From: Patescibacteria group bacterium
GTDB taxonomy: Bacteria; Patescibacteriota; Minisyncoccia; Phycocordibacterales; UBA918
NCBI GenBank assembly: GCA_040386275.1
Contig: JAZKFU010000009.1
Coordinates: 22,367 to 86,366, forward strand
Direction of reading: 5' to 3'
DNA: 64,000 nt
Numbering within the stretch: position 1 is the first letter of the stretch; each line of letters begins with the position of its first letter. The position numbers and the translations under genes were made by a program. Of this stretch, positions 7,102 to 62,349 are shown piece after piece. Under the pieces are notes generated by a model. That model did not search any database. It was not told the origin of the DNA and saw only the letters and a list, made by a program, of their open reading frames with translations.

Positions 7102-8433
7102 ATGAAAGATACTACGACTATGGAAATTAAACACATTAAAAAGCGTGATGGATCACTACAGTCCTTCGATATTGTAAAAATCGAACACGCTATTTTAATG
7201 GCACTGAAAGAAACCAATGAAGGTGTTGAAGCTGACGCGAGTAAAGTGGCCACTCGAGTTCATCAAAACGCTGTTTCTATGTGTGTCCAAGCGGGCACCG
7301 CTACTGCAGAGGACCCGCAGTCCCAAAAATGTATCAACGGTTACCCAACGGTAGAAGAAATCCAGGACTTGGTGGAGGCGTCACTCATGGAATTGGGGTA
7401 TTTTGAAACGGCCAAAGCGTACATCATCTACCGAAACGAGCGCAAGAAAATGCGTGAACCGGATATTTTCCGCAAGCGACCCTACCTCAAGCCGTACGAG
7501 TACCCTGAACTCTATGAGTACGTTGATGCAGTACGACATTCATACTGGGTGCACACGGAATTTAACTTTACCGGTGACGTCCAAAATTTCCATGTGAACG
7601 TTAACGATGTTGAGCGTAGTGCTATTAAAAACACCATGCTTGCCATCGCGCAAATTGAAGTGGCGGTGAAAAGTTTCTGGGGAGATATTTACAAAAAAAT
7701 GCCTAAGGCAGAGATTGGGGCAGTGGGAGCGACTTTTGCTGAATCTGAAGTTCGTCACACTGACGCCTACTCACACTTGCTTGAAATTTTAGGTCTCAAC
7801 AATGAGTTCACTAAAATTAAAAATATCCCAGTCATTCAGTCACGAATGAATTATTTGGAGAAAGTAAGTGAGCTCTCAAAAACGAGTGAAAATAAAGAGT
7901 ACGCTCAAGCGGTTATGTTGTTCTCGTTGTTTGTGGAGCACGTCTCTTTGTTCTCACAGTTTTTGATTATGATGTCCTTCAATAAACATAAGAATTTATT
8001 TAAGGGAATCAGTAACGCCGTGGAGGCTACTTCAAAAGAAGAAAACCTGCACGGTATGTTTGGGATTGATGTGATTAACATCATTAAAAAAGAACATCCA
8101 GAGTGGTTTGACGCCGAAGCAAAAAATAAGATTATGACTGCTTGCGAAGAGGCGTTTGAAGCAGAAAGTAAGGTGATTGACTGGATTTTTGAAGCGGGGG
8201 AACTTGATTTCTTGCCCGCCAGTAACGTGAAGGAGTTTGTGAAGCATCGCTTTAACAATTCGCTTGCATCCATTGGTATGGAACGATTGTTTGATGTAAA
8301 TCCGGTGTTGCTTGAGGAAACTGATTGGTTTGATAATGAAGTTATTGCTACCAAGCACGTAGACTTCTTTGACAAACGATCAATTAACTACAACAAACGA
8401 TCGGCGAGCGTGACGAGTGAAGATTTGTTTTAA
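7102..8433 (+). CDS. nrdB: class I ribonucleotide reductase small (radical-generating) subunit NrdB with an N-terminal ATP-cone
   Basis: N-terminal IKRDGS..F...KI..AI ATP-cone; R2 iron ligands and the radical Tyr (ESEVRHTDAYSH, EENLHG). Confidence 0.85.
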   Translation: MKDTTTMEIKHIKKRDGSLQSFDIVKIEHAILMALKETNEGVEADASKVATRVHQNAVSMCVQAGTATAEDPQSQKCINGYPTVEEIQDLVEASLMELGYFETAKAYIIYRNERKKMREPDIFRKRPYLKPYEYPELYEYVDAVRHSYWVHTEFNFTGDVQNFHVNVNDVERSAIKNTMLAIAQIEVAVKSFWGDIYKKMPKAEIGAVGATFAESEVRHTDAYSHLLEILGLNNEFTKIKNIPVIQSRMNYLEKVSELSKTSENKEYAQAVMLFSLFVEHVSLFSQFLIMMSFNKHKNLFKGISNAVEATSKEENLHGMFGIDVINIIKKEHPEWFDAEAKNKIMTACEEAFEAESKVIDWIFEAGELDFLPASNVKEFVKHRFNNSLASIGMERLFDVNPVLLEETDWFDNEVIATKHVDFFDKRSINYNKRSASVTSEDLF

Positions 8434-13845: not shown

Positions 13846-14091
13846 ATGACTCAAAAACAGAAATTAGTAGAAACTTTTCGGACCAATCCAGGCTCATTAA
13901 AGTTTAAACAGCTGGCAGCTGTACTTGAACATTATGGTTTTACCATGATTCAGGCTAAGGGCAGTCATGTAAAATTTAAACATCCAAAATTGTCTTCTGA
14001 TTTAATAATCCCAATTCATAACGGTGACTGCAAGGATTTTTATAAAAAAGAAGCATTAAAACGAGTTTCTGAAATCGAAAAAAATAAATAA
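13846..14091 (+). CDS. hicA: type II toxin HicA-family (YcfA-like mRNA interferase)
   Basis: 81 aa; LEHYGF...KGSHVKFKHP....IIPIHNG core typical of HicA. Confidence 0.7.
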   Translation: MTQKQKLVETFRTNPGSLKFKQLAAVLEHYGFTMIQAKGSHVKFKHPKLSSDLIIPIHNGDCKDFYKKEALKRVSEIEKNK

Positions 14092-14092
14092 T

Positions 14093-14407
14093 ATGGCTAC
14101 AACTTCAACTATCACCATTCAAAATAAAAAATATGAATATACTCTAAAACCTTCAAAGGAGAAGGGAGTTATTCGCTTTGTTTGCAAAGGAGCCAATATT
14201 GATCAAGACTTTCTTGCGGAAGATATTCCAACGTTAATTCTTGACTTGCCTAGACTCATTCTTGCTGAGCGAGCGTACCAGGACAATCAAACCGAAGTTG
14301 TTCGATTCCGTATCTCCTCAGAAGATAAGAAAAAAATTGAGAAAAAAGCGCTCGCTAGTGGTTTTGAGACCGTTTCTGATTATTTGCGTGCGCGAGCGCT
14401 AGCGTAG
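14093..14407 (+). CDS. hicB: cognate antitoxin (HicB-like) with a C-terminal ribbon-helix-helix
   Basis: Start 2 nt after the hicA stop; C-terminal RFRISSEDKKKIEKKALASGFETVSDYLRARAL resembles a CopG/RHH DNA-binding motif. Confidence 0.55.
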   Translation: MATTSTITIQNKKYEYTLKPSKEKGVIRFVCKGANIDQDFLAEDIPTLILDLPRLILAERAYQDNQTEVVRFRISSEDKKKIEKKALASGFETVSDYLRARALA

Positions 14408-15017: not shown

Positions 15018-15051
15018 TGAATGTAATTAATTAACATTTTAATTAATTTCA

Positions 15052-15077
15052 AAAAAGCGCCACAGGGCGTTTTTTTG
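15052..15077 (+). terminator. intrinsic terminator after rplK
   Basis: aaagcgcc acag ggcgtttt ttt. Confidence 0.65.
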
Positions 15078-15183
15078 TTGTGTTGTTCAAATAGAGTGCT
15101 CAGTGTAAGAAACGTCTCTTTACTGCGTCAAAGGGTTTAGAACCCTAGTATCGGGCAAATGTTCTATAACAAGAGGTGCAATC

Positions 15184-15549
15184 ATGAAGCCAGAAGTACG
15201 TCATACCACGTTCTTCAAGATGGGCGAATCCTTAGCAGTGTTTGCCCGCAAAGTAGTAGATGTTGATCAGGCAGAAGTGCTCGGTCACAAAGTGGTGCTC
15301 AAAGAAATACCGGTTGATGAGTCAGTGCAGGTGCAGGACATACAGCGACGGTTCTGGGCGGTAACTGAGTATCCGCCAGAATTGGTTAGTTGCCTCGGGC
15401 AGTTTACTCATGCGGTTCGTGGTACTTCAGACTATGAGGTTGGTCAGCCTAATGATGATGAGTCCCGCAAACTCTTTCGTTGGGCACAAGAAAAAGTAAA
15501 AGTTATCCTCTTTCCTGAACAAGAACAACCAGAAGCAACTCGGCTGTAA
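15184..15549 (+). CDS. hypothetical protein (island gene A), GC-rich
   Basis: 121-aa ORF; shares an upstream motif (ctgcgtcaaaggg) with island gene B. Confidence 0.45.
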   Translation: MKPEVRHTTFFKMGESLAVFARKVVDVDQAEVLGHKVVLKEIPVDESVQVQDIQRRFWAVTEYPPELVSCLGQFTHAVRGTSDYEVGQPNDDESRKLFRWAQEKVKVILFPEQEQPEATRL

Positions 15550-15719
15550 TGAGAATCCAGACTGGAGTTAGCCCCACTTTTTTGTGGGGTAATTTTTTTT
15601 ACTTAAGCAGAATCAGTAAAAAGTATCATTTTGTAAGAAAGAGGGAGTTGCTGCGTCAAAGGGAACAGACCGTACAAAATGTGCGTATCAAGCGCACAAA
15701 ATAGAGAAAGGGACAGAGA

Positions 15720-16187
15720 ATGATGGACGCAGTAGTAGACTATATCAACCGAACGTTACGGAAAGATAGTGTCGCAGTTATGATTCAAGCACACGATGGG
15801 TCCCAATACATCGTTGACAGGAATCATTTTGTGACCAGAGCGGGAAGAACCATTGCTCACAAAGGGCATGTGGAAACGATTGCCAAAGCAGCGATGCGGG
15901 TCATGCGGTACCTGGATAAAGAGGTAACTGAAAAAGATTTTGAGGTCTTTAAACCTCGCAACCTCGGCCCAAACCGAACCCACTTCGTTGTGTGGTTTCC
16001 TTCTTCTGACGTGTTTAAAGTTGATGATGTTGCCTGGAAGCAACATCTGTTTGCTGTTGAAGATGAGCATTTATTTACCCGCGCGCAACTGCGGGCGATA
16101 CACTTTGTTTCTAGTGAAGCTCGTAATCTTCATGAACAACGGCAACTTCCAGTCGCTGACTATCATCTCGTGATGAAAGCGGGCTAA
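15720..16187 (+). CDS. hypothetical protein (island gene B)
   Basis: 155-aa ORF; translation-initiation region gagaaagggacagagaATG resembles that of gene C. Confidence 0.45.
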   Translation: MMDAVVDYINRTLRKDSVAVMIQAHDGSQYIVDRNHFVTRAGRTIAHKGHVETIAKAAMRVMRYLDKEVTEKDFEVFKPRNLGPNRTHFVVWFPSSDVFKVDDVAWKQHLFAVEDEHLFTRAQLRAIHFVSSEARNLHEQRQLPVADYHLVMKAG

Positions 16188-16311
16188 CAACAACACGGCA
16201 TCCGAATAACTTCGGGTGCTGCTTTTTTTATACAGTCATTTTTCCGGACATAGAGAATAGTGTGCTATAACGTACTAAGCGGAAGAAGTTCATCATGGAG
16301 AGGGGACAGAG

Positions 16312-16863
16312 ATGAAAGCTATGCTGGCACCTATGATTGGGAATCCCGACCGACCACTACCGCGGAGTATGTTCGTTCAAGGAATTCGTAACACCGTTAT
16401 GGTGGGCGTAGTCAGTCAAGACAATGGCTTTGCGGTTATCAAACCCATGCGAGACCCAACTGGTCGTGTTTGGATTCCACCGCAGGGTCCCATTGGTCAC
16501 AAACGTTCTTTGTTTGCTGCCGGCCGTCACGTACTGCGGGAAGAGATTCCTTCATTAAAGCGACCACACCGTCATGCCATTCCCATCATTGATTGGGACA
16601 GCGCTTTCTACGCAGGCTCGGCCATTAACGAGCATGCTCGTAGTGGTTACTGCAAAATGGTGCATGTAGTGTTGTTCCGGACGAATACGGCACGCTTGCC
16701 GACACTGCGTAGTAATGGCTCGGACGCCAGTGCCGCCCAGTGGGTGTTCTCAAATGAAATGTTGCACCATGTGCTTAAAAGTACCCATGACACCAATCCT
16801 GTAAAAGCCCACCTGGTCATGGAGGCAGCCTGGGCCGCAAAAGAAAAAGGATGGCTCCACTAA
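16312..16863 (+). CDS. hypothetical protein (island gene C)
   Basis: 183-aa ORF; translation-initiation region gagaggggacagagATG. Confidence 0.45.
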   Translation: MKAMLAPMIGNPDRPLPRSMFVQGIRNTVMVGVVSQDNGFAVIKPMRDPTGRVWIPPQGPIGHKRSLFAAGRHVLREEIPSLKRPHRHAIPIIDWDSAFYAGSAINEHARSGYCKMVHVVLFRTNTARLPTLRSNGSDASAAQWVFSNEMLHHVLKSTHDTNPVKAHLVMEAAWAAKEKGWLH

Positions 16864-16988
16864 ATGAATCAAACCTAACGCCGGTTGCATTAATAGCAAC
16901 CGGCACCCAACTAAGTCCCTCATCAGGGGACTTTTGTTATTTTTTAATACTTTGCTATAGTGCATCCGGACTGGAACAAGAGGGATAT

Positions 16989-17414
16989 ATGATGACAGAA
17001 GTAACCATGTACGTGGGACAGGCACTAACCGACGCACCTGATTCGTTTCGAGTGGATTTCCAAAACGAGCTCAAGGTAGCATTGCGAAAGTTGCCGGAGG
17101 TAACAGTTCTTGATTTTGTGGGGCTTGAAAATGGTACGGCGCAGGATGTCTATCTTCATGATAGAAAATGTACCACCAGCGCCACATTGTGTGTTTTTAT
17201 TGTTGATTACGCCTCCATTGGGTTGGGTATGGAGATTATGATTCGACATCACGCGGGTGGACCTGTGTTATTTTTTGCCAAGACTGGCCGAAAGGTAACG
17301 CGGATGCTCACGGGGTACATTGAGTGTATGGATCAAACATTGACCCGGTATAACGAGGTCGAGGATATCATCGTTGTGGTGAAAGAATATCTTCAGCACA
17401 CTGAAACTCATTGA
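16989..17414 (+). CDS. hypothetical protein (island gene D), possibly nucleoside 2-deoxyribosyltransferase-like fold
   Basis: Start taken at the internal MMTEVTMYVGQ (the ORF track's 16851 start overlaps gene C); the pattern YVGQ...D...FIVDYASIGLGMEI...GGPVLFF resembles the NDT/LOG-like Rossmann signature. Confidence 0.35.
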   Translation: MMTEVTMYVGQALTDAPDSFRVDFQNELKVALRKLPEVTVLDFVGLENGTAQDVYLHDRKCTTSATLCVFIVDYASIGLGMEIMIRHHAGGPVLFFAKTGRKVTRMLTGYIECMDQTLTRYNEVEDIIVVVKEYLQHTETH

Positions 17415-17453
17415 ATTAAAAGAAGCGCCCCATACAGGGACGCTTCTTTCTTT

Positions 17454-17963
17454 TTATTTTCGAACGTAGTCTACCCACTGAAACGATAGTCCTGCGTGTT
17501 CTTGAATGGGGTGTTCGGTAGCAATTGTAAAATCACTTTCGAACTCGGGGAAGGTTGTGTCACCCTCAGCATCATCGTTATAGAGTGTTAGGTAAATTTT
17601 ATCGACATAGGGAAGCGCTTGTTCGTACATCTGCGCCCCTCCACCAATATGAATTTCACTCGGGTTTTCTTTGGAGGCTACGGTAAATGCTTCCTCAAGT
17701 GAGGTGGTCGTGGTAGCTCCTGGGTAGGAGTAGCTTGCGTCACGCGTCACAATGATATTGGTTCTGCCTGGTAATGGTTTGCCTAAAATAGCAATAATCG
17801 ATTCAAAGGTTTTTCTACCCATAATGATAGGGTGGCCCAGGGTCAGAGCTTTAAAGCGTCGCAAATCGGCAGGGACGTGCCAGAGGAGGTCATTTCCTTG
17901 GCCAATGGCTCGTGTATGGCGACCCATGCCAGCCACGATAATAACGGGTGTATTGTGAGTCAT
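17454..17963 (-). CDS. folA: dihydrofolate reductase
   Basis: IIVAGMGRH..IG....LLWHVP.DLRRFKALTLGHPIIMGRKTFESI and the GRTNIIVTRD motif. Confidence 0.85.
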   Translation of the reverse strand: MTHNTPVIIVAGMGRHTRAIGQGNDLLWHVPADLRRFKALTLGHPIIMGRKTFESIIAILGKPLPGRTNIIVTRDASYSYPGATTTTSLEEAFTVASKENPSEIHIGGGAQMYEQALPYVDKIYLTLYNDDAEGDTTFPEFESDFTIATEHPIQEHAGLSFQWVDYVRK

Positions 17964-18001: not shown

Positions 18002-18541
18002 ATGGCAATAAATGCAGGCATTTTTGGAGACAAGACCAGTTTTGACCACCGGTATATTCCTGACCACGACAAGCTTGAAACTTCAGTAAAGCTTTGGAAA
18101 CAACTGGGATTAAAAATTGTTCTTACCTCAGGTACCTTTGATTTATTTCATATTGGCCACGCGCAGTATTTAGAGAAAGCAAAAGAGCTCGGGGACGTCT
18201 TGATTGTGGGGGTAGACAGTGATGCTCGGGTAAAAAAGCGAAAAGGTCCTGATCGTCCGGTAGTACCAGACTCGGAACGAGTACTTATTTTATCGCACGT
18301 TCGGCATGTTGATGTAGTGACGATTAAAAATGTAGATGATCCGAGCAATCATTTAATTAAACTTATCAAGCCTGACGTACTTATTGTTTCTGAATCAACC
18401 AAACATGCTGATAATGAGGTGGATGAAAAAGCGCAATATTGTGGTGAAATAATAGTGCTTGAACCCCAAGCGACCACGAGTACGAGCGCCAAACTGCGTA
18501 TGATTCAAATTGGAAAAGAAGAAGGTCTCGCGCACGGTTAG
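18002..18541 (+). CDS. cytidylyltransferase-superfamily nucleotidyltransferase (RfaE domain II / HldE-like adenylyltransferase)
   Basis: TSGTFDLFHIGHAQYL (HxGH motif), GDVLIVGVDSD and KGPDRPVV..SERVLILSHVRHVDVV. Confidence 0.65.
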   Translation: MAINAGIFGDKTSFDHRYIPDHDKLETSVKLWKQLGLKIVLTSGTFDLFHIGHAQYLEKAKELGDVLIVGVDSDARVKKRKGPDRPVVPDSERVLILSHVRHVDVVTIKNVDDPSNHLIKLIKPDVLIVSESTKHADNEVDEKAQYCGEIIVLEPQATTSTSAKLRMIQIGKEEGLAHG

Positions 18542-18542
18542 T

Positions 18543-19388
18543 ATGATTGCAATTTGTCACATTCCGGTAGTTCATCGCGGGTACTTAGATTTTGTCCGAA
18601 CGTGCGAGGCGAAGGGAGTGACAAAATTGTTTTTGGTTGATTTACAATTTCTCTCACCCTATGATGAATTTGATTACTTGGTGCGAAAGAATAGTTTGCA
18701 TGCATTATCGGCGACTGATATTAAACAGGCGCTCGAACAGTACACTAATATCCCCGTAGTAATTTTAACTGACGAAACAGTAGCCGAAGTAGAAAACGGC
18801 GACGTCGAAATTTTGATGCCAAAGGAAGATATCAGTACGTTCTTGGCAGAAAAATATTTAGCTGGTCGAACCATACAGTTTGAAAATGTTTTCTTGCGGT
18901 GGAATCGCGAAAACTTGGGAGAAACAAAAGAACCAGATGTGCAAGCAAGTGATTTGCCAGAGTTTGTAACAACTGTTTTTCATCAAGTGCTTGAAGAGGC
19001 GACAAAAAGTGCGGATTGGTGGCGGAGTGTCGGTGCGGCCTTAGTCAAAAATGGGGAAGTGATAGCGCTTGCCCATAACGACCACATGCCGTTTGAACAG
19101 CTTCCTAATGTATTTGGCGATGCTCGGGCCTTATTTAAAAAAGGTATCAACATTAACTACGCTACTTCTGCCCATGCAGAGGTCGGGGTAATTGCCGAGG
19201 CGGCTCGCAAAGGCATTTCACCCCAAGGCGCGGAATTATTTTTAACGGATTTTCCGTGCCCGTACTGTGCTCGTTTGATAGCGAAAGCTGGTGTTAAAAA
19301 AATTTATTTCCTCAAGGGATACGCGGTGTTAGAAGGAGATGAGTTTTTAAAGGGGGAAGGGGTGGAGCTGATACAAGTTGGATTATAA
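18543..19388 (+). CDS. dCMP/cytidine deaminase-family protein with an approximately 140-aa N-terminal extension
   Basis: C-terminal zinc-deaminase motifs HAEVGVI and PCPYC; the start is placed at the ATG 2 nt after the upstream stop. Confidence 0.7.
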   Translation: MIAICHIPVVHRGYLDFVRTCEAKGVTKLFLVDLQFLSPYDEFDYLVRKNSLHALSATDIKQALEQYTNIPVVILTDETVAEVENGDVEILMPKEDISTFLAEKYLAGRTIQFENVFLRWNRENLGETKEPDVQASDLPEFVTTVFHQVLEEATKSADWWRSVGAALVKNGEVIALAHNDHMPFEQLPNVFGDARALFKKGININYATSAHAEVGVIAEAARKGISPQGAELFLTDFPCPYCARLIAKAGVKKIYFLKGYAVLEGDEFLKGEGVELIQVGL

Positions 19389-19430: not shown

Positions 19431-20108
19431 TTAAAACTGCTCATCATGATGCAGGGCGTGCGAACGGATATACTGTTCGCGAGTCATGTCTGGTTCGTAA
19501 GCTTTCAAGTACCCGAGCAGTCGCCCGTGGTCCTTTTTCCAGCCAGCCAAATTTTTGTACACAGCCGGCCTGATTTCATCGAGACCATTGGGCTCATCAA
19601 CATTTTCATGCAGGTGACCGATGACAGTGCCGCCGTTGAAGATTGCGGAACCCCAGCGAGTGTAGTTGGCCCCACCTGTTCCTTCTGCAAAGCAGCCAAA
19701 TTTCTCCATCAAGTATCTGCGACAGCGGTTCATACCGAGCGACTCAGCGTCAGTCAGAACAGGATTTGCAGTGTGACGCTTGAGTACAATCACAAACTTT
19801 TTCGCCAACGCGCCTTGGTGACGGTTGAATCCTCCTGGGGGAATGAATGCAAAACAGCTGGCGTTGTCGAAGATGATTTCTCCTTTGAGAAGGGCGGGGT
19901 TGCAAAAGACACACCGTTCCTTTGTATTCATTCCAGCGTGCAGCATGTCGTAGAATGCACCGGGCGTATTGGTGCGTCCCAGGGCAATGACATATTCGAG
20001 TGTCAGGCCGGGAATGGTCGGCCAGCCGAATCCTTCATGAATCATCAGGGTCGGTGTATCACCGCTTGGGGAGTCTATAGACAAGTCATTTCTCCTTGCT
20101 TTGGGCAA
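19431..20108 (-). CDS. HIT-like superfamily protein (putative nucleotide hydrolase/transferase)
   Basis: CVFCNP Cys pair and a GHLHENV histidine-triad-like motif; weak. Confidence 0.4.
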   Translation of the reverse strand: MPKARRNDLSIDSPSGDTPTLMIHEGFGWPTIPGLTLEYVIALGRTNTPGAFYDMLHAGMNTKERCVFCNPALLKGEIIFDNASCFAFIPPGGFNRHQGALAKKFVIVLKRHTANPVLTDAESLGMNRCRRYLMEKFGCFAEGTGGANYTRWGSAIFNGGTVIGHLHENVDEPNGLDEIRPAVYKNLAGWKKDHGRLLGYLKAYEPDMTREQYIRSHALHHDEQF

Positions 20109-20206
20109 TACTACCCAGTTTCAATCTGCCGCTACAATACAACAATTTGCGTAAAAAACAAGCTTACGGTACTCTACAAATGGAAGCTCAACTTGGAGGA
20201 ATAGTA

Positions 20207-20755
20207 ATGTCTGCACTGCCTAAATCTAAGCCGATGTCTGACACTGAAGTGGTGTTATACGAAGGCATTCACAACATTGTCACTGTTATCATCGGAGAAA
20301 ATTTGTACGACCGTCGTCAAGTTATTATGAAAAATACTGGCCTACAAAGTGCAGGTGCTACTTTGTGGGGTGTGTCGGCCGGTGTCGTCGATCCATCAAC
20401 GGGTCGCAAAATGTTGTGCAAGAGCAGTATTCCTATCATGCCAGCTGATGCGGAAGTGATGGGTACTCGTATTGCTGATCGTTTCTTCAGGGTCGCAGTC
20501 GATGATTATCTCGAGCACTTTCGTTTTGAAGCTTGGTGCGAGCACAATCCTTACAATGGGGCCATGACCATTGTGCGGATGATTTGCCCGCAGGGTCCTG
20601 ATAAATGGTTGATTGGTGGCGGTATGGACAATACCGTTGAATATCGAGGGGAATTTGCTCGGATGCCGCAGTGGGCAAAAGACATCGCCTACAAAAACTT
20701 TGGCGGTTGGATTGGTACTGTAGGGGCAAACCTCGGTCCGCTTGTGACTAAATGA
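20207..20755 (+). CDS. hypothetical protein
   Basis: Start moved to the Met preceded by a GGAGGA RBS (MSALPKSK...); the ORF-track start at 20096 lacks an RBS. Confidence 0.45.
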   Translation: MSALPKSKPMSDTEVVLYEGIHNIVTVIIGENLYDRRQVIMKNTGLQSAGATLWGVSAGVVDPSTGRKMLCKSSIPIMPADAEVMGTRIADRFFRVAVDDYLEHFRFEAWCEHNPYNGAMTIVRMICPQGPDKWLIGGGMDNTVEYRGEFARMPQWAKDIAYKNFGGWIGTVGANLGPLVTK

Positions 20756-20799
20756 AAATACATTGGCCGCTTCAATATGAAGCGGCCAATATTTTATTT

Positions 20800-21267
20800 T
20801 TACACAACTTTCTTATAACTCAACTTCACCTTCAGACCTTCGGTGTCTTCTGCTTTTCGTACACCAGTTATTAATTGTGCGTGGAGGTGTTCGACACTAC
20901 TGCCGTTGTAGCCTCCTTCACCAAACCGCATAAAGAAACCGCCACCCGGGATTTTATATTCGTTAATGACCCAGTCCACTAAATCAAATAGTTCGATGCG
21001 ACTTTCAGGAGTGAGGTCCGACGGAACGGTAATGTGCGCTGGTTTATACACAAAAATATAGTGTTGAGTTGTCCCTTCATAGGGGCTCATGTTTTCCGTT
21101 AAAAACCAAGATTCAGTTTCTTTAAGAATTGGTTTCGGGTGGTACTGTCTAAAATGTGCCTCACAAAACGGACAGACTCCATCGGCTTCAATTTGGGCCA
21201 TTAACTTTTTTTGCTCCTCAGTTCGAGCTTCCTTGTGGTCGAGGCCAGCGTCAGGAGTAAAAGACAT
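20800..21267 (-). CDS. HIT-family protein (HxHxQ variant) with a CxxC zinc motif
   Basis: GVCPFCE and VEHLHAQLI. Confidence 0.55.
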   Translation of the reverse strand: MSFTPDAGLDHKEARTEEQKKLMAQIEADGVCPFCEAHFRQYHPKPILKETESWFLTENMSPYEGTTQHYIFVYKPAHITVPSDLTPESRIELFDLVDWVINEYKIPGGGFFMRFGEGGYNGSSVEHLHAQLITGVRKAEDTEGLKVKLSYKKVV

Positions 21268-36115: not shown

Positions 36116-36541
36116 ATGCAGTTGATTCTAGGTAAGGTCAATCAAGAATCTAAAAAATTGATATTCATGGCGCACATTCCTATAAGTGCACAACAACATG
36201 ATATCAAAACGGCAATTGAAAAAGTCCGATTTCTAAAAATCGCCGCTGAACGTTCCGGGTACATCGCATACTCCACTGATGTGGTCACATTATTTGAATC
36301 TCGCTTGCATGTGAGTAAGGAGCTACAACAAAAACGCGAACGGGATTGCCATTTACTGTCAGTGGGTACGTACGATGCCATCCAATATTCCGGAAGCGGT
36401 CTTTCCAGTGATCATTTGCAAGATATTGCTCGAGCGGCCTATTTTGGAGAAACGCCAGTCTACTTAGATATACCAAAAGAATCTCTACTGGCTCAGTATA
36501 TTATTAGGTTTAAATTTAATAGAGTGCAAAGGGATATTTAA
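36116..36541 (+). CDS. hypothetical protein
   Basis: Strong RBS aaggaggtgtgccATG. Confidence 0.45.
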   Translation: MQLILGKVNQESKKLIFMAHIPISAQQHDIKTAIEKVRFLKIAAERSGYIAYSTDVVTLFESRLHVSKELQQKRERDCHLLSVGTYDAIQYSGSGLSSDHLQDIARAAYFGETPVYLDIPKESLLAQYIIRFKFNRVQRDI

Positions 36542-44425: not shown

Positions 44426-45016
44426 ATGCAATTGTTTGGCAATTCAGAAAACATGAGCGAACTATCTGATGAAGATATTTTACTGCGTTCCCGCGCTCAC
44501 CCCTGGCTGTTTTCAATGATTCTCGAACGCTACCAAGACGCTTTTTTCCGTAAAGCCATGGGAATTATCCATACTAAAGAGGATGCCGAAGAAATAGTAC
44601 AAGACACGTTTACCAAAATTTACCTGCATGCTGATTCCTTTAGCCCGGTTGAAGGCGCCAAATTTTCTTCGTGGGCGTACCGAATTTTAATGAACACCGC
44701 CTTTACCGCCTACCAAAAGCGCATCAAGCAAGGTGCACGCTTTCAAAATATTGATCCGGAGTTTGAACAGTTTGTGGCCGATAAATCAGGTGGGGTAGCG
44801 GCTACGGAAATTCATGACGGGGTAGAGCGCATTTTAGCTCGATTGCCGGGCCATTTCTCGAGCGTATTGCGGTTGCACTACATTGAACGCTGGAGTCACC
44901 AAGATATAGCCACCGAAACGGGTGAGGCCGTAGGGACCATAAAAGCCCGTATCCACCGAGCCAAGGCCGCCTTTCGAAAGGAAAGTACCGAACTGGAACA
45001 GCAACAATTACTGTAA
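44426..45016 (+). CDS. ECF-type RNA polymerase sigma factor (sigma-70 regions 2 and 4)
   Basis: Region 2 (EEIVQDTFTKIYLHADSF, SSWAYRILMNTAF) and region 4 HTH (IERWSHQDIATETGEAVGTIKARIHRAKAAFRK). Confidence 0.8.
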   Translation: MQLFGNSENMSELSDEDILLRSRAHPWLFSMILERYQDAFFRKAMGIIHTKEDAEEIVQDTFTKIYLHADSFSPVEGAKFSSWAYRILMNTAFTAYQKRIKQGARFQNIDPEFEQFVADKSGGVAATEIHDGVERILARLPGHFSSVLRLHYIERWSHQDIATETGEAVGTIKARIHRAKAAFRKESTELEQQQLL

Positions 45017-57628: not shown

Positions 57629-58114
57629 GTGGCCATTACAAAAGCAAAGAAGGTAGATATCCTCAGTAAGTTGACTGAAGTAAAAGATACTGCAGACTCA
57701 ATTGTGTTCGTTCACTATAAAGGTCTTTCAGTAGCTGCTACTACAGCAATGCGCAAGGAACTACGAGAAAAAGGCGTCGGCATGTTCGTAGCCAAAAAGA
57801 CTCTTATGGGTCGCGCATTTGATGGAGCATTCACCGGCACTATGCCAACACTCGACGGCGAAATCGCTGTTGCATACAGTGTTGACGCAATGGCGCCAGC
57901 TCAGAATATGAAGGAGTTTTCAACCAAGTTCAAAGACAAGATTACTATTGTTGGCGGTGTCTTCCAAGGTGCCTACAAGAATAAAGAAGAAATGATTGAA
58001 ATTGCTTCGATTCCATCACTTGATGTACTCCGAGGAATGTTTGCTCAACTCATCAACTCACCACGTCAGCGTTTCGCTGTGGTATTGGATGCAGTATCAG
58101 GAACAAAGAGTTAA
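57629..58114 (+). CDS. rplJ: 50S ribosomal protein L10
   Basis: KKVDILSKLTEVKDTADSIVFVHYKGLSVAATTAMRKELREKGVGMFVAKKTLM. Confidence 0.9.
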   Translation: MAITKAKKVDILSKLTEVKDTADSIVFVHYKGLSVAATTAMRKELREKGVGMFVAKKTLMGRAFDGAFTGTMPTLDGEIAVAYSVDAMAPAQNMKEFSTKFKDKITIVGGVFQGAYKNKEEMIEIASIPSLDVLRGMFAQLINSPRQRFAVVLDAVSGTKS

Positions 58115-58139: not shown

Positions 58140-58502
58140 ATGACTAACGATCAAATTATCGAAGCCGTTGAAAAAATGACTGTTCTTGAACTCAACACTC
58201 TCGTAAAGACAATTGAAGAGAAGTGGGGAGTATCTGCTACAGCAGTAGCAGTAGCTGGTCCAGCTGCAGCAGCTGGTGGAGCTGATGAACAATCAGAATT
58301 CACTGTTGAACTTACAGAAGCTGGTGCGCAAAAAATTGCTGTTATCAAGGTAATCAAGGAAGTACTTGGTCTTGGACTCAAGGAAGCCAAGGACCTCGTT
58401 GACGCTGCGCCTTCAGTTGTAAAGGAAAACATGAAGAAAGAAGATGCTGATGCCCTTAAAGCTAAGCTTGAAGAGGCTGGAGCAAAAATTACATTAAAAT
58501 AA
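58140..58502 (+). CDS. rplL: 50S ribosomal protein L7/L12
   Basis: N-terminal dimerisation helix, an Ala-rich hinge, and the C-terminal domain [26 protein letters not shown]. Confidence 0.95.
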
Positions 58503-58688: not shown

Positions 58689-58812
58689 ACTGTTTTGTCG
58701 CAAGCGCTGAGGTGGGGTCGAGAGCACTTGGCTGATTTGTGAGCTTGCGAGCAAATCTGCGTAGTGACTCGTGACAAGATTACCCTTAAATAATTTAAAA
58801 CGAAAGTATTTC

Positions 58813-58843
58813 AAAAAACACTCCCACCTGGGAGTGTTTTTTG
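58813..58843 (+). terminator. intrinsic terminator upstream of the surface-protein gene start
   Basis: aaaaaacactccc acct gggagtgttttttg. Confidence 0.75.
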
Positions 58844-58920
58844 TACTTTTAGACTCGTTTACCAGGATTTTGTCCCCAGAGTCTTCTTCGTCGGTATCTA
58901 TAAATGCTACTATTTTAGAT

Positions 58921-61900
58921 ATGACAGAAAAATTAACAGAAATAGTCGCTTTATTACAAATATTACTTTCGCTTGTGATGACGCAAGGTCAGACACTAGC
59001 TACCAATAATAATAACGGTGCTCTTTTAGGATCTACTTCAGTTGTGACTGCGACGACTACTGCGTGGACCCAAATTGCCAAAGAAGGTCAAAGGTTCACT
59101 GTTTCAGGCACACAAACGGTCCGGTATGGATATGGAACGTCATGGGTCCAAAAAACAGTGACTAATTCAGGTACTTGCTCTAATCGTTTTTTTGGAAAGG
59201 ATCCGATTGTAAATCAAGTAAAGGTGTGTCAGGTTTCTTCTACAGTTACCCCGTCAACTCCCACACCAGTAACTATCGCCACTCCGTTTAAGATTGGTGA
59301 CCGGGTGAGTATGACCGCAAACGTTAATGTTCGAACATCAGGTCTAATTTCAGCCACTACACTTATTGGTGTTAATCCACTTGGGAGTGTGGGAACGCTT
59401 ATTGCTGGTCCCACCCGATCTGCTGACGGCCTTGTTTGGTTTAACGTCAACTTCGACGCTGGCTTTGATGGGTGGGTTGGTTCAAATAACTACCGTTTAG
59501 TTACTACCTCGGTCACTCCGTTACCAACCCCAGCACCAACGCCAACCTTCACCACCACCGTCTCTGGTCTCACAGCTACTGCAGCTTTCACGTTAAGTAA
59601 TGGGTGTGAAGGGTACACCATCCTCTGGGGTGACGGTACTCAATCAGCTAAAGCAGCTTCACCATCGGGCAGTTCGTGTACCATGGCGATTGTAAATGTG
59701 TCCCAAGTCCATGCCTATGCTACCGCGGGAACCTATACGGTCACCGTTCAACGGTACAGTAGTGGTACGACTTTAAAAGATACCAGTACCCGAACGGTTA
59801 CTGTTGCTGGCTCAACTCCAGCCCCAACTCCATTGCCCGTAACTATCAACACTCCTTTTAAAATTAATGACCGGGTGAGTATGACCGCAAACGTTAACGT
59901 GCGCTCTACTGGGCTGGTATCTGCAACTACATTACTTGGAGTTAATCCTCTAGGAAGTATGGGAACCCTCGTGGCAGGTCCAACCCAATCTGCTGACGGT
60001 CTCATTTGGTTTAACGTGAATTTTGACACTGGCTTTGATGGTTGGGTGGGAGCAAATAACTACCGTTTAGTTACTACCGTTACTCCATTGCCGTCTCCAA
60101 CACCAACGCCAATTCCTGTACCAGCGCCAACACTTGTTGTGAACGCTAACCCTACGAGCGTTACTACTGGTAACACTGCTGTAATTTCTTGGTCAAGTAC
60201 TAACGCCACCGCGTGTACAGCGAGCGGCGCCTGGAGCGGTTCTCGAGCGGTGACTGGTTCATTCACGACGAGTGCTCTTAATACCACGGGCACCCAAACA
60301 TACTCCATGACCTGTACCGGTTCAGGCGGCAGTGTGACCCGTTCTGGTAGTGTGGCAGTAACCGCGGCGGCAACAGTAACTCCAACCCCAGCTCCAACTA
60401 CGCCAACAGTATTTGGTCCGCGAACCCCAAGTCCACTTTCGGTACGACAAATCCACAGTGGCCACAGCCTCACCGACGGCGGTACGTTCCAAGGTACCTA
60501 CCCGGGGCACTTCCGGAATATGATTAATAGTATCCAAGCCAATAGTGCCAATGTCGCTCAAAGTACCATTCCGGGTTCTCCGCTCCATTGGCGCTGGAAC
60601 AACGTACCGGGCTATGGTCAGCCTGATGCCCGCGGTGATATCGGTAACTATCAGTTACTTGTTATTACCGAAGGCGTGCCATTCATCTTCTCTGCCTCCA
60701 ACCCCGAGTGGACCCTTGAACACCGCACCTGGCTGCGCACCTGGGCCGAACACGCCTGGCGCAACGGTAATGGCGGCGCGGGTGCACCAACCATCTTATA
60801 CGCCACCTGGACCAACATCGATGATGCGGACGGACCGTTCCGCCAAAACCTCGATACCTACCAACCTATCTGGGAGGATATGGCTGACTACGCGTCTGCT
60901 AACCTACCTGCTCAAGCCAAGGTATACATTATTCCGGCGAACCTTTTAATGAAACGCTTCTACGATGACATTCAAGCCGGACGAGTACCGGGTATCAATA
61001 ACATTAGTGGTTTCTTCTCTGATGCCATTCACCCTAATGGCTTAGGAAGTTACGCGGTAGCGCTTCAACACCTTCTCGTGATTCACCACATTGACCCGCG
61101 CGGACTGCGGTCCACTGGTTTTGGCTTAAGTCCTGAACCTTCAGCGGCTCTGGCTAAGTACATTCAAGATACCGTGTGGGATGTGACGACGAAGTATCCA
61201 CGTAGTGGGGTGACGGCGGGGAATACAACCACCTCAACGCAAACCCCAAGTACAGTTCCAACCCCAACCCTGTCTCTGAGTGCTAACCCAACCAGTCTTA
61301 CCGCTGGTAACGCCGCTACACTGAACTGGTCAAGTACCAACGCCACCGCATGTTCTGCTGGTGGTGCATGGAGTGGATCGCGGGCGGTAAACGGTTCATT
61401 TACTACGGGTGCACTTAGTACTGTGGGTACACAAATTTTCAACCTTACGTGTACGGGAAGTGGAGGAAGTGTGAGTCGTTCTGCAAGTGTGGGTGTGACA
61501 GCGTCTACAGTAACCTCTGCGCCTACCGTTACCTCGTGTACGGTACCAACCCTGACCTTTAATCCGGCTGACTTCGACCGCGTGATTGATGGCACAGAAA
61601 TCACCAGTACATTGACCCTGGATGGATCTGCTTGGAATAATACGCTGATTAGAAATTGTCGCGTGCGTAACACCGCTGGGGATGGAATTCTTCTCCGTAA
61701 TGTGAGCAACGTGGTAATTACCGGTTGTACGTTTGAAAATATGGGCGGAAATGCGGCGGTCCGAGGGAGTTCAAGTGGCGGGACGTCAAACGTGACGCTT
61801 TATAGAAATACTGTGAATGGAACTGCTTCAAACGGTTTCCATTTTGCAGAACGAATTGCTTCGGGAGTGGATCACGTAAACTTGCGTATTATTGGCAATA

Positions 61901-62349
61901 CACTCAGTAATACGGGTCGAGCTTCGTCAGATGGTTCAACCCACGCTTTGTATATCCAAGCGCATGATTCTCTGATTACCCATAACACTATTAATGGTTC
62001 GCGCAATGGAAACGGTATCTCCGTTCGCAGTTCAGGGGAAGTGTCGTGTAATACCGTATCAGGCACTTCATCAAATGGTAAGCCAGGTATTCGCTATTAC
62101 TCAGACCATAATACTGGTTTGACCAATACCCTTATTATCAATAGAAATACCGTAAGCGGAGCAACTGAAGGAATAAATATCTATCAACCAGTCGTCAGGT
62201 ATGATGGCCAGACTGGATTAGATCACGTGGTGAAAAACTTTGTGATTACCAACAACGATGTCCGGAATAACACCAATGGTATTGGTATTGCCAGTCAGTA
62301 CAATCAATCACCGTTTACCGTGACGCAGTCAGGAAATATGACTAATTAA
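58921..62349 (+). CDS. large secreted multidomain surface protein (two SH3-like repeats, two Ig/PKD-like repeats, a central hydrolase-like domain, and a C-terminal right-handed parallel beta-helix)
   Basis: Start set at MTEKLTEIVALLQILLSLV after the terminator; internal direct DNA repeats 59281-59507/59851-60077 and 60143-60366/61280-61505; beta-helix repeats NCRVRNTAGDGILLRNVSNVVITGC... Confidence 0.55.
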   Translation: MTEKLTEIVALLQILLSLVMTQGQTLATNNNNGALLGSTSVVTATTTAWTQIAKEGQRFTVSGTQTVRYGYGTSWVQKTVTNSGTCSNRFFGKDPIVNQVKVCQVSSTVTPSTPTPVTIATPFKIGDRVSMTANVNVRTSGLISATTLIGVNPLGSVGTLIAGPTRSADGLVWFNVNFDAGFDGWVGSNNYRLVTTSVTPLPTPAPTPTFTTTVSGLTATAAFTLSNGCEGYTILWGDGTQSAKAASPSGSSCTMAIVNVSQVHAYATAGTYTVTVQRYSSGTTLKDTSTRTVTVAGSTPAPTPLPVTINTPFKINDRVSMTANVNVRSTGLVSATTLLGVNPLGSMGTLVAGPTQSADGLIWFNVNFDTGFDGWVGANNYRLVTTVTPLPSPTPTPIPVPAPTLVVNANPTSVTTGNTAVISWSSTNATACTASGAWSGSRAVTGSFTTSALNTTGTQTYSMTCTGSGGSVTRSGSVAVTAAATVTPTPAPTTPTVFGPRTPSPLSVRQIHSGHSLTDGGTFQGTYPGHFRNMINSIQANSANVAQSTIPGSPLHWRWNNVPGYGQPDARGDIGNYQLLVITEGVPFIFSASNPEWTLEHRTWLRTWAEHAWRNGNGGAGAPTILYATWTNIDDADGPFRQNLDTYQPIWEDMADYASANLPAQAKVYIIPANLLMKRFYDDIQAGRVPGINNISGFFSDAIHPNGLGSYAVALQHLLVIHHIDPRGLRSTGFGLSPEPSAALAKYIQDTVWDVTTKYPRSGVTAGNTTTSTQTPSTVPTPTLSLSANPTSLTAGNAATLNWSSTNATACSAGGAWSGSRAVNGSFTTGALSTVGTQIFNLTCTGSGGSVSRSASVGVTASTVTSAPTVTSCTVPTLTFNPADFDRVIDGTEITSTLTLDGSAWNNTLIRNCRVRNTAGDGILLRNVSNVVITGCTFENMGGNAAVRGSSSGGTSNVTLYRNTVNGTASNGFHFAERIASGVDHVNLRIIGNTLSNTGRASSDGSTHALYIQAHDSLITHNTINGSRNGNGISVRSSGEVSCNTVSGTSSNGKPGIRYYSDHNTGLTNTLIINRNTVSGATEGINIYQPVVRYDGQTGLDHVVKNFVITNNDVRNNTNGIGIASQYNQSPFTVTQSGNMTN

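Follow-up and report, generated by a model that had tools for sequence, protein, structure and literature searches.

What occupies the gap between a ribosomal protein gene and a deoxynucleotide gene cluster in a genome of the candidate phyla radiation, where regulation is almost uncharacterised? The question is raised by four adjacent genes, here called A, B, C and D, in a 64,000-nucleotide (nt) stretch of a Patescibacteria group bacterium (Patescibacteriota; Minisyncoccia; Phycocordibacterales; UBA918; assembly GCA_040386275.1, contig JAZKFU010000009.1, positions 22,367-86,366 of the forward strand). This whole stretch is referred to as the window, and all coordinates are window positions. 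The host is a Paceibacterota (Kaiserbacteria-like) bacterium without ribosomal protein L1. The original prediction for this locus had described a GC-rich, co-regulated, horizontally acquired island, possibly of a defence type. Homology, synteny, motif conservation and composition favour instead, with a probability of about 0.6, four accessory genes that are transcribed separately and were inherited vertically as an array specific to the clade, in a fixed variable slot, with D assigned as DNPH1-like, C as Nudix-derived, and A and B as orphans that share a putative extracytoplasmic function (ECF) sigma-type promoter.

The slot lies between secE-nusG-rplK and a deoxynucleotide cluster comprising folA, dCMP deaminase, thyA, dut, tmk and glyA. 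Its upstream anchor is rplK (ribosomal protein L11; 14517-14939, forward strand; Pfam Ribosomal_L11_N and Ribosomal_L11), as is likewise seen in the L001-L031 loci of relatives, and its downstream anchor is folA (DHFR; 17454-17963, reverse strand; Pfam DHFR_1, 5e-45), the first gene of the dTMP cluster. The four genes predicted after rplK are real, being four open reading frames (ORFs) on the same, forward strand. A (15184-15549) encodes a 121-amino-acid (aa) orphan and is preceded by a Shine-Dalgarno (SD)-like AAGAGG; B (15720-16187) encodes a 155-aa orphan and has an SD-like AGGGA; C (16312-16863) encodes a 183-aa Nudix-derived protein, assigned by profile and homology; and D (16989-17414) encodes a 141-aa DNPH1/Rcl-like protein, assigned by its family profile against the PDB. 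The ORF of D opens at 16851, and its true start is the ATGATG at 16989, matching all homologues. An intrinsic-terminator-like hairpin of 12 pairs and a T run follows rplK (15050-15077), and the terminator scan lists similar hairpins 3' of A (15571-15590) and 3' of B (16196-16221), all on the forward strand. Two forward-strand stem-loops lie 3' of C (16877-16933), the second of which (16913-16933) is terminator-like, and the inverted repeat I6 (17419-17449), between the convergent D and folA genes, resembles a bidirectional terminator. Because a terminator-like hairpin follows each gene, A-D are read as monocistronic units and not as a single operon.

Arrangements in relatives were obtained by hmmsearch with five family profiles over all loci. 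The slot is identical in all 20+ contexts read for relatives of A, B, C and D, with a constant upstream side (nrdB-nrdA, an M10 peptidase gene, a SIMPL gene and secE-nusG-rplK) and a constant downstream side (folA, dcd, thyA or thyX, tmk, mazG or dut, and glyA). Between rplK and the dTMP cluster, the window and L004 carry A-B-C-D, L005 carries A'-B-C-D (A' being a further orphan family described below), and L023 carries A'-B-C-D-dcd. The corresponding genes are B-C-folA in L025, A-B-C followed by an F420-ligase-like gene and folA in L030, A followed by an F420-ligase-like gene and folA in L031, C-D in both L002 and L007, and a gene for a 219-aa unknown protein and then D in L001. In L028-L031, which are without D, the protein encoded before folA is PF01996 F420-0:gamma-glutamyl-ligase-like, and its gene overlaps the convergent DHFR gene (e.g. 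L031:6503-7207). Presence and absence form a mosaic, and the relative order A/A'-B-C-D is unscrambled across eight distinct genomes; the co-occurrence in other genomes that had been suggested as a check was found, with the genes recurring as a collinear block.

The D family has 11 relatives in a collection of 5.8 billion proteins, one with PF05014 and one from Candidatus Kaiserbacteria, and a scan of GTDB species genomes yielded 19 loci, in Patescibacteria only. By tblastn of the window proteins on these loci, D stands beside secE-nusG-rplK in 14 of the 19 genomes, and it directly follows rplK in L006, L008, L012 and L022. Its identity drops alongside that of nusG and rplK, from 99% through 81/67%, ~55% and ~40% to ~30%. 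Where nusG is at least 95% identical, C (75-80%) and D (67-81%) are conserved to a degree like that of DHFR (74-78%), and B (26-56%) and A (37-39%) diverge faster. Judged from this identity tracking and from synteny, A-D have been passed down vertically, with genes lost in some lineages, in a slot whose content varies.

Single-sequence scans of the four proteins against Pfam and NCBIfam returned nothing significant, and neither did a scan against PHROGs. The claim that these genes have no recognisable homologues holds for such scans (Pfam, PHROGs, PADLOC and NCBIfam) but fails once family profiles are applied. An exact-sequence look-up returned no record for C or for P0001. With family profiles, the NDT (nucleoside 2-deoxyribosyltransferase)-like character first suggested for D is substantiated. 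A 12-sequence D profile already matches Rcl/DNPH1 in the PDB at 0.003, and a 27-sequence profile (alignment A7) matches DNPH1/Rcl at 7e-9, the CMP N-glycosidases MilB/BcmB at 1e-4 to 3e-3 and NDT at 5e-3; 12 of the 27 family members also match PF05014 individually, at best with 4e-7. The D motifs are S76-I-G-L-G-M-E82 and T104-R-M106. G78, L79, G80 and E82 are invariant in the 27 sequences, and S76 is invariant in the Paceibacterota subfamily. In the alignment, S76 and E82 correspond to rat DNPH1 Ser87 and Glu93, and T104-R-M106 to the Ser-x-Met119' of the partner subunit (the S-A-M of Rcl), residues which contact the 5'-phosphate and deoxyribose in the rat enzyme (PMC3834327). Because these phosphate- and deoxyribose-binding residues align in D, the protein is read as a DNPH1-type nucleoside-5'-monophosphate N-glycosidase. 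On profile evidence, D is a member of the NDT superfamily closest to DNPH1/Rcl, and its family is best read as a new, Pfam-invisible subfamily of putative DNPH1-like N-glycosidases. The inferred enzyme activity would be cleavage of the base from a (deoxy)nucleoside 5'-monophosphate substrate via a covalent Glu82-deoxyribosyl intermediate, with S76 and T104 holding the 5'-phosphate and with deoxyribose 5-phosphate and the free base as products. Its role may be dNMP salvage or the removal of non-canonical dNMPs beside the thymidylate pathway.

Among characterised relatives, DNPH1/Rcl (2'-deoxynucleoside 5'-phosphate N-hydrolase; PDB 2KHZ, 4FYH, 8OS9) is the best match of the D-family profile, and shares with it the S-x-G-x-G-x-E block (nucleophile Glu, phosphate Ser), the Ser/Thr-x-Met element and a size of ~140-150 aa. 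However, identity to D is very low, only profile residues 44-118 align, and the N-terminal phosphate loop Y-x-x-G-S-I-R-G-G of DNPH1 contrasts with Y-V-G-Q-A-L-T-D-A-P in D; unlike DNPH1/Rcl, the D family is bacterial and confined to Patescibacteria. The MilB/BcmB/BlsM CMP N-glycosidases (PDB 4JEM, 4JEN, 5VTO) belong to the same superfamily, act on nucleoside monophosphates and form the second-best match group, but are found in actinomycete antibiotic clusters, whereas D lies in a primary deoxynucleotide-metabolism neighbourhood. NDT itself (PF05014; PDB 1F8X) ranks below both groups, although solved NDT chains can be aligned with the G-L-G-M-E of D, the core that contains the catalytic Glu; we take this core to be identical, residue by residue, to the Lactobacillus NDT motif. 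At the position of Ser76, NDT has an Asp, and this difference distinguishes nucleoside-using from nucleotide-using enzymes.

The test for a Nudix fold that had been proposed for the four proteins is positive for C. The protein encoded at the same position in L002 (L002:9345-9902) is 36% identical to C (E = 2e-29) and, with 29.9 bits, clears the Pfam NUDIX cutoff (21.1), as does the L007 counterpart; the C-family profile matches ~40 Nudix structures in the PDB, with a best value of 3e-5. The window's C itself is below the Pfam NUDIX threshold. In its subfamily (183 aa, 69-98% identical), the box reads G-PVGHK-R-SLFAAGR-H-V-L-R-E-E-I-P-S, and comparison with the Nudix box GX5EX7REUXEEXGU gives the substitutions E7->R, R15->H, E16->V and G22->P (alignment A5). 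In C itself the box residues are G59...R65...H73 V74 L75 R76 E77 E78, among which only G59 and the EE pair (E77, E78) are retained. Since the box is not intact, C is filed as Nudix-derived and not as a canonical Nudix hydrolase; having lost three Nudix-box residues, it probably still binds a nucleotide, but with its chemistry altered or lost. Canonical members of the Nudix hydrolases (PF00293; RppH, NudB, MutT) that are homologous to C stand at its locus in L002 and L007, and the box substitutions set the C subfamily apart from them. C is read as a Nudix-fold descendant of a canonical Nudix pyrophosphohydrolase of the kind that occupies the same position in these relatives.

A, B and C have few relatives each. 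A has five homologues among 1.84 billion representative proteins (alignment A2), encoded directly after rplK, and B has eight, with 52-99% identity, which directly follow rplK in all contexts read. A third orphan family, A', takes the position of A in L005 (8026-8478) and L023 (7382-7828); its members are 148-150 aa long and 67% identical. No mutual homology was detected by hhalign among A, A', B and C, the sole aligned stretch between B and C being the Nudix-box helix at E = 0.08, and the B family yielded no match when its profile was run against the PDB or when its members were scanned one by one against Pfam at E <= 10. AlphaFold2 models reached a pLDDT of 72 for A and 64 for B. In Foldseek searches of PDB and BFVD, neither model has a match below E = 0.01, and the best, non-significant matches are almost all of the Nudix fold. 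Because none falls below that value, these matches are treated as a lead only. Both proteins are fast-evolving, with 37-56% identity where nusG is 90-95% identical.

The upstream block that A and B had been predicted to share is confirmed, although the coordinates first given (15106-15140 and 15637-15668) were a few nt off. The element TGTAAGAAA-N10-CTGCGTCAAAGGG has exactly two copies in the window, with none expected in shuffled sequence, and these exact, conserved repeats lie on the forward strand upstream of A (15104-15135) and of B (15632-15663). On the same strand, a hairpin, GGGTTtagAACCC, can be read after the copy upstream of A. In L005, L023, L025, L030 and L031 the bipartite element stands ahead of all A, A' and B genes, so that A' shares the motif as well. 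The blocks TGTAAGAA and GCGTC.AA.G do not vary among the 10 promoters aligned, which come from 6 genomes, and the spacer is not conserved in sequence but constant in length. Because the blocks are invariant and the spacer varies in sequence at a fixed length, the element is built like a promoter. The motif corresponds to no known riboswitch or leader, since Rfam searches of the region and of the full window reported nothing but two tRNAs elsewhere. An exact-motif scan of metagenome contigs gave 10 unrelated, chance-like matches with no A-D family nearby.

Promoter function is inferred from this conservation. A and B would each be transcribed from a TGTAAG-N16-CGTC promoter, read as dependent on an ECF sigma factor. 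In ECF promoters, AAC is typical of the -35 element and CGT(C) of the -10 element (PMC5758882), and the promoters of the Bacillus subtilis sigma-X/W/M/V group (ECF group 4) have tGAAAC/TGTAAC at -35 and CGTC/CGTA at -10. The A/B element resembles these in being bipartite, with a fixed-length, non-conserved spacer and CGTC at -10, and a sigma gene is present in the window: a forward-strand gene at 44426-45016 encodes a 196-aa ECF-type sigma factor with regions 2 and 4 only (Sigma70_r2 1e-12, Sigma70_r4_2 3e-11). This sigma factor is a candidate regulator of the A/B promoters. An ORF of 117 aa without a Pfam match begins 34 nt 3' of the sigma gene (to 45403) and may encode an anti-sigma factor. 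ECF dependence would mean conditional (stress) induction of A and B.

C and D appear to be controlled differently. An extended -10-like TGcTATAAC (16263-16271, forward strand) can be read 40 nt upstream of the start codon of C, and in L005, L023, L025 and L030 a TATAAC/TATAAA box resembling it stands ahead of C. Upstream of D is a sigma-70-like promoter, TTGTTA-16-TATAGT with an upstream TG (16934-16961, forward strand), which is also present in L023 and L005. As judged from these motifs, common regulation is confined to A and B, and C and D have sigma-70 promoters of the extended -10 type. The proposed co-regulated module therefore stands for A and B, with their shared conserved motif, but not for all four genes, which have their own terminators and two types of promoter. 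The predicted 5' untranslated region of B also contains a small hairpin on the forward strand, TGTGCG-tatcaag-CGCACA (15680-15698), which the terminator scan lists only as minus-strand terminator-like. Relatives have a hairpin ~50 nt (L023, L025) or ~45 nt (L005, L030) before B; the stems differ (TGTGCG/CGCACA, GCGCT/AGCGC, CCGT/ACGG), and the structure is seemingly kept where the sequence is not.

The near-identical initiation regions reported for B and C are borne out by a count of the 9-mer GGGACAGAG, which occurs only twice in the 64 kb on both strands, at 15710 and 16303, just 5' of the B and C start codons. Equivalent positions in relatives contain varied purine runs (AGGGA, GAGGG, GGAG), and because these vary the shared feature is read as an SD-like site and not as a specific operator. 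Predicted duplex energies with the anti-SD sequence are -7.1, -5.0, -8.2 and -6.3 kcal/mol for the four genes. Values of -5 kcal/mol or lower occur in all four and in only 3 of the 52 other genes (hypergeometric p ~1e-4). L001, L023, L025 and L031 show this contrast as well. An Rfam search of the whole window found no 16S rRNA gene. A passage of a preprint describes the anti-SD motif as often missing in Parcubacteria without L1 (bioRxiv 10.1101/2022.01.07.475337). Outside A-D, SD-like sites are nearly absent among the genes of the window. No trace of such a site is seen in highly expressed genes, among them rplK, rplL, ssb and efp, and a 141-aa ORF at 36116-36541 also has an SD-like site, AGGAGGTG, at -12.9 kcal/mol. 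The idea of a mostly leaderless genome was weakly supported, in that a strong -10 box lies 4-12 nt upstream of the start codon in 7 of 52 genes, and was set aside.

Several observations weigh against the array and the assignments of its members. D is missing from L025 and L030, which keep B and C, and adjacency in a variable slot is no proof that the A-D proteins work together. A and B match no library family significantly and have no function that can be assigned. The window's D alone is below every Pfam threshold, the profile hidden Markov model alignments leave the N-terminal Tyr/Gly loop of DNPH1 uncovered, and, in the wider D family, several members from Saccharibacteria have Ala in place of the phosphate-binding Ser. 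As to the promoter, the -35 block ends in AAG in all 10 copies instead of the usual AAC, a copy of the motif was looked for upstream of the ECF sigma gene and not found, which leaves no autoregulatory copy there of the kind usual for ECF sigma factors, and the A/B motif could be a transcription-factor site instead.

In a rival reading, A-D would form no module at all: the rplK-folA gap would be a tolerated hotspot for unrelated lineage-specific genes, with C and D as ordinary nucleotide-metabolism enzymes and A and B as parts of an unrelated ECF regulon (envelope or stress response). Each gene does have its own promoter and terminator, and the promoters fall into two classes; the slot of other genomes holds the 219-aa unknown, DCD, NlpC/P60-like and F420-ligase-like proteins; each of A, B, C or D is absent from some genome; and A, A', B and C have no detectable mutual homology. 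An assembly of unrelated genes is harder to reconcile with the order A/A'-B-C-D, which is unscrambled in all eight distinct genomes, with SD-like initiation regions that are common to the four genes and otherwise rare, and with the fold matches of A and B, weak and non-significant, that point to the Nudix fold of C. The hotspot is considered unlikely.

In a bolder reading, A, A', B and C might all be extremely diverged, catalytically altered nucleotide binders of the Nudix fold, and together with D might form a Patescibacteria-specific module for surveillance or salvage of the nucleotide pool. Its activation would be conditional, with an ECF sigma factor controlling A and B and SD-led translation controlling all four genes. 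This reading is improbable. If true, the Nudix-fold/D module would be a separately controlled class of transcription and translation for a nucleotide-stress response, set in an L1-less, SD-poor background.

The accessory or defence island originally proposed would be an uncharacterised nucleotide-modifying anti-phage system, acquired horizontally and inserted at the former rplA position. Defence systems that target nucleotides do include NDT-like and Nudix folds, the slot varies among close relatives, A and B evolve rapidly (37-56% against 90-95% for nusG), a HicAB toxin-antitoxin pair lies just upstream, and the translation signals of A-D are unlike those of the rest of the genome. A difference in GC had also been reported, at ~50% against ~43%. 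Its direction is correct, but its size is not: A-D have 47.1% GC and the window 44.0%, with a standard deviation of 2.6% among equal-sized windows, which places them in the top 8%. For the individual genes the values are 47.8% (A), 46.4% (B), 52.0% (C) and 46.0% (D), and relative to the 49 other genes C alone stands out (z = 2.2), with A, B and D within ~1 standard deviation; for comparison, the adjoining folA has 47.5% and the presumed rpoB 52.5%. GC at third codon positions (GC3) is ordinary in A and B and modestly raised in C and D, within the background range, and in codon usage A-D lie at a distance of 0.28-0.33 from the pooled genes, compared with 0.28 +/- 0.05 for similar-sized genes. 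The composition of A-D carries no signature of foreign DNA, both GC and codon usage being native save for the GC of C.

No integrase, transposase, other mobility gene or flanking repeat was found around A-D in the ORF list and the repeat scan. Horizontal acquisition is contradicted by the single fixed location within one clade, by a D identity that follows that of the housekeeping genes nusG and rplK, and by native codon usage and GC3. A PADLOC scan of the four proteins gave nothing significant, the best values (E 0.008-0.02) covering short stretches of Cas6 and restriction endonuclease models, and neither PHROGs nor the BFVD fold search contributed a match. The neighbours, moreover, encode ribonucleotide reductase, DHFR, dCMP deaminase, ThyA, dUTPase, Tmk and SHMT, so that a role in defence finds no backing. 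The vacant rplA position is equally uninformative. No rplA gene is present in the window, as had been supposed, or in any Paceibacterota locus examined, but a passage in the literature already describes the absence of L1 from a Parcubacteria subgroup (bioRxiv 10.1101/2022.01.07.475337, citing Brown et al. 2015), so the empty position is a clade-wide trait and no scar of an insertion. In the Saccharibacteria locus L019, rplA (PF00687) is kept between rplK and D, and the two genes coexist. An acquired defence island is accordingly regarded as very improbable.

In a further reading, D would be a non-enzymatic, ribosome-associated protein that replaces or compensates for L1, as might be suggested by its place next to rplK, or where rplA would be, in 14 of 19 genomes and by the absence of L1 from this clade. 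This is scarcely credible and was rejected because L019 encodes both L1 and D and because the residues of DNPH1 for catalysis (Glu) and substrate binding are invariant in D; D is also absent from the L1-less L025, L030 and L031, and has its own promoter, with terminators between it and rplK.

The preferred reading of A-D as a vertically inherited array removes the false lead of a defence island and provides annotation for recurrent 'hypothetical proteins' in Paceibacterota/Kaiserbacteria-type genomes. Bacteria of the candidate phyla radiation rely on scavenged nucleotides, and D and C would help to process or clean salvaged deoxynucleotides. To our knowledge, essentially nothing is known of promoters and translation initiation in these organisms, and an ECF-like promoter and SD-like sites that are confined to a few genes may offer a first handle on their regulation. 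Overall, A-D are mostly ordinary genes with some unexplained regulatory features; they represent no new kind of system, and current understanding stands.

The wider neighbourhood is one of deoxynucleotide metabolism, with genes for NrdB/NrdA, DHFR, a cytidylyltransferase-like protein, dCMP deaminase, ThyA, dUTPase, Tmk and SHMT. NrdB (7102-8433) has an N-terminal ATP-cone domain (residues 11-116), and the same fusion is found in L002, L023 and L025. Two genes lie between nusG and rplK (13846-14407), one for a HicA toxin (PF07927) and one for its 104-aa partner, whose ribbon-helix-helix domain is NikA-like. Because its GC is low (32% and 40%), this pair looks more insertion-like than A-D do. 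A similar HicA-type pair lies upstream of rplK in L030.

On the far side of folA from D, at 18002-19388, the cytidylyltransferase-like gene overlaps by 32 nt the gene for a 292-aa protein in which a dCMP-deaminase domain (residues 155-268) is preceded by ~150 residues without a Pfam match; this pair is kept in L025. Within the dTMP cluster, at 19431-21267, are three conserved ORFs without a Pfam match at 1e-3, encoding proteins of 225 aa (reverse strand), 219 aa (forward) and 155 aa (reverse). Two of them have HIT-like H-x-H-x-x motifs (GHLHENV and EHLHAQL), and a counterpart in L031 is annotated as PF01230 HIT. Farther along the window are rplJ (57629-58114), rplL (58140-58502) and a 1192-aa ORF presumed to be rpoB (58771-62349). 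With some 43 kb between these genes and rplK, this genome has the classical rplKAJL-rpoBC cluster in separate parts, and no stretch of the window is richer in GC than the 58771-62349 ORF (52.5%).

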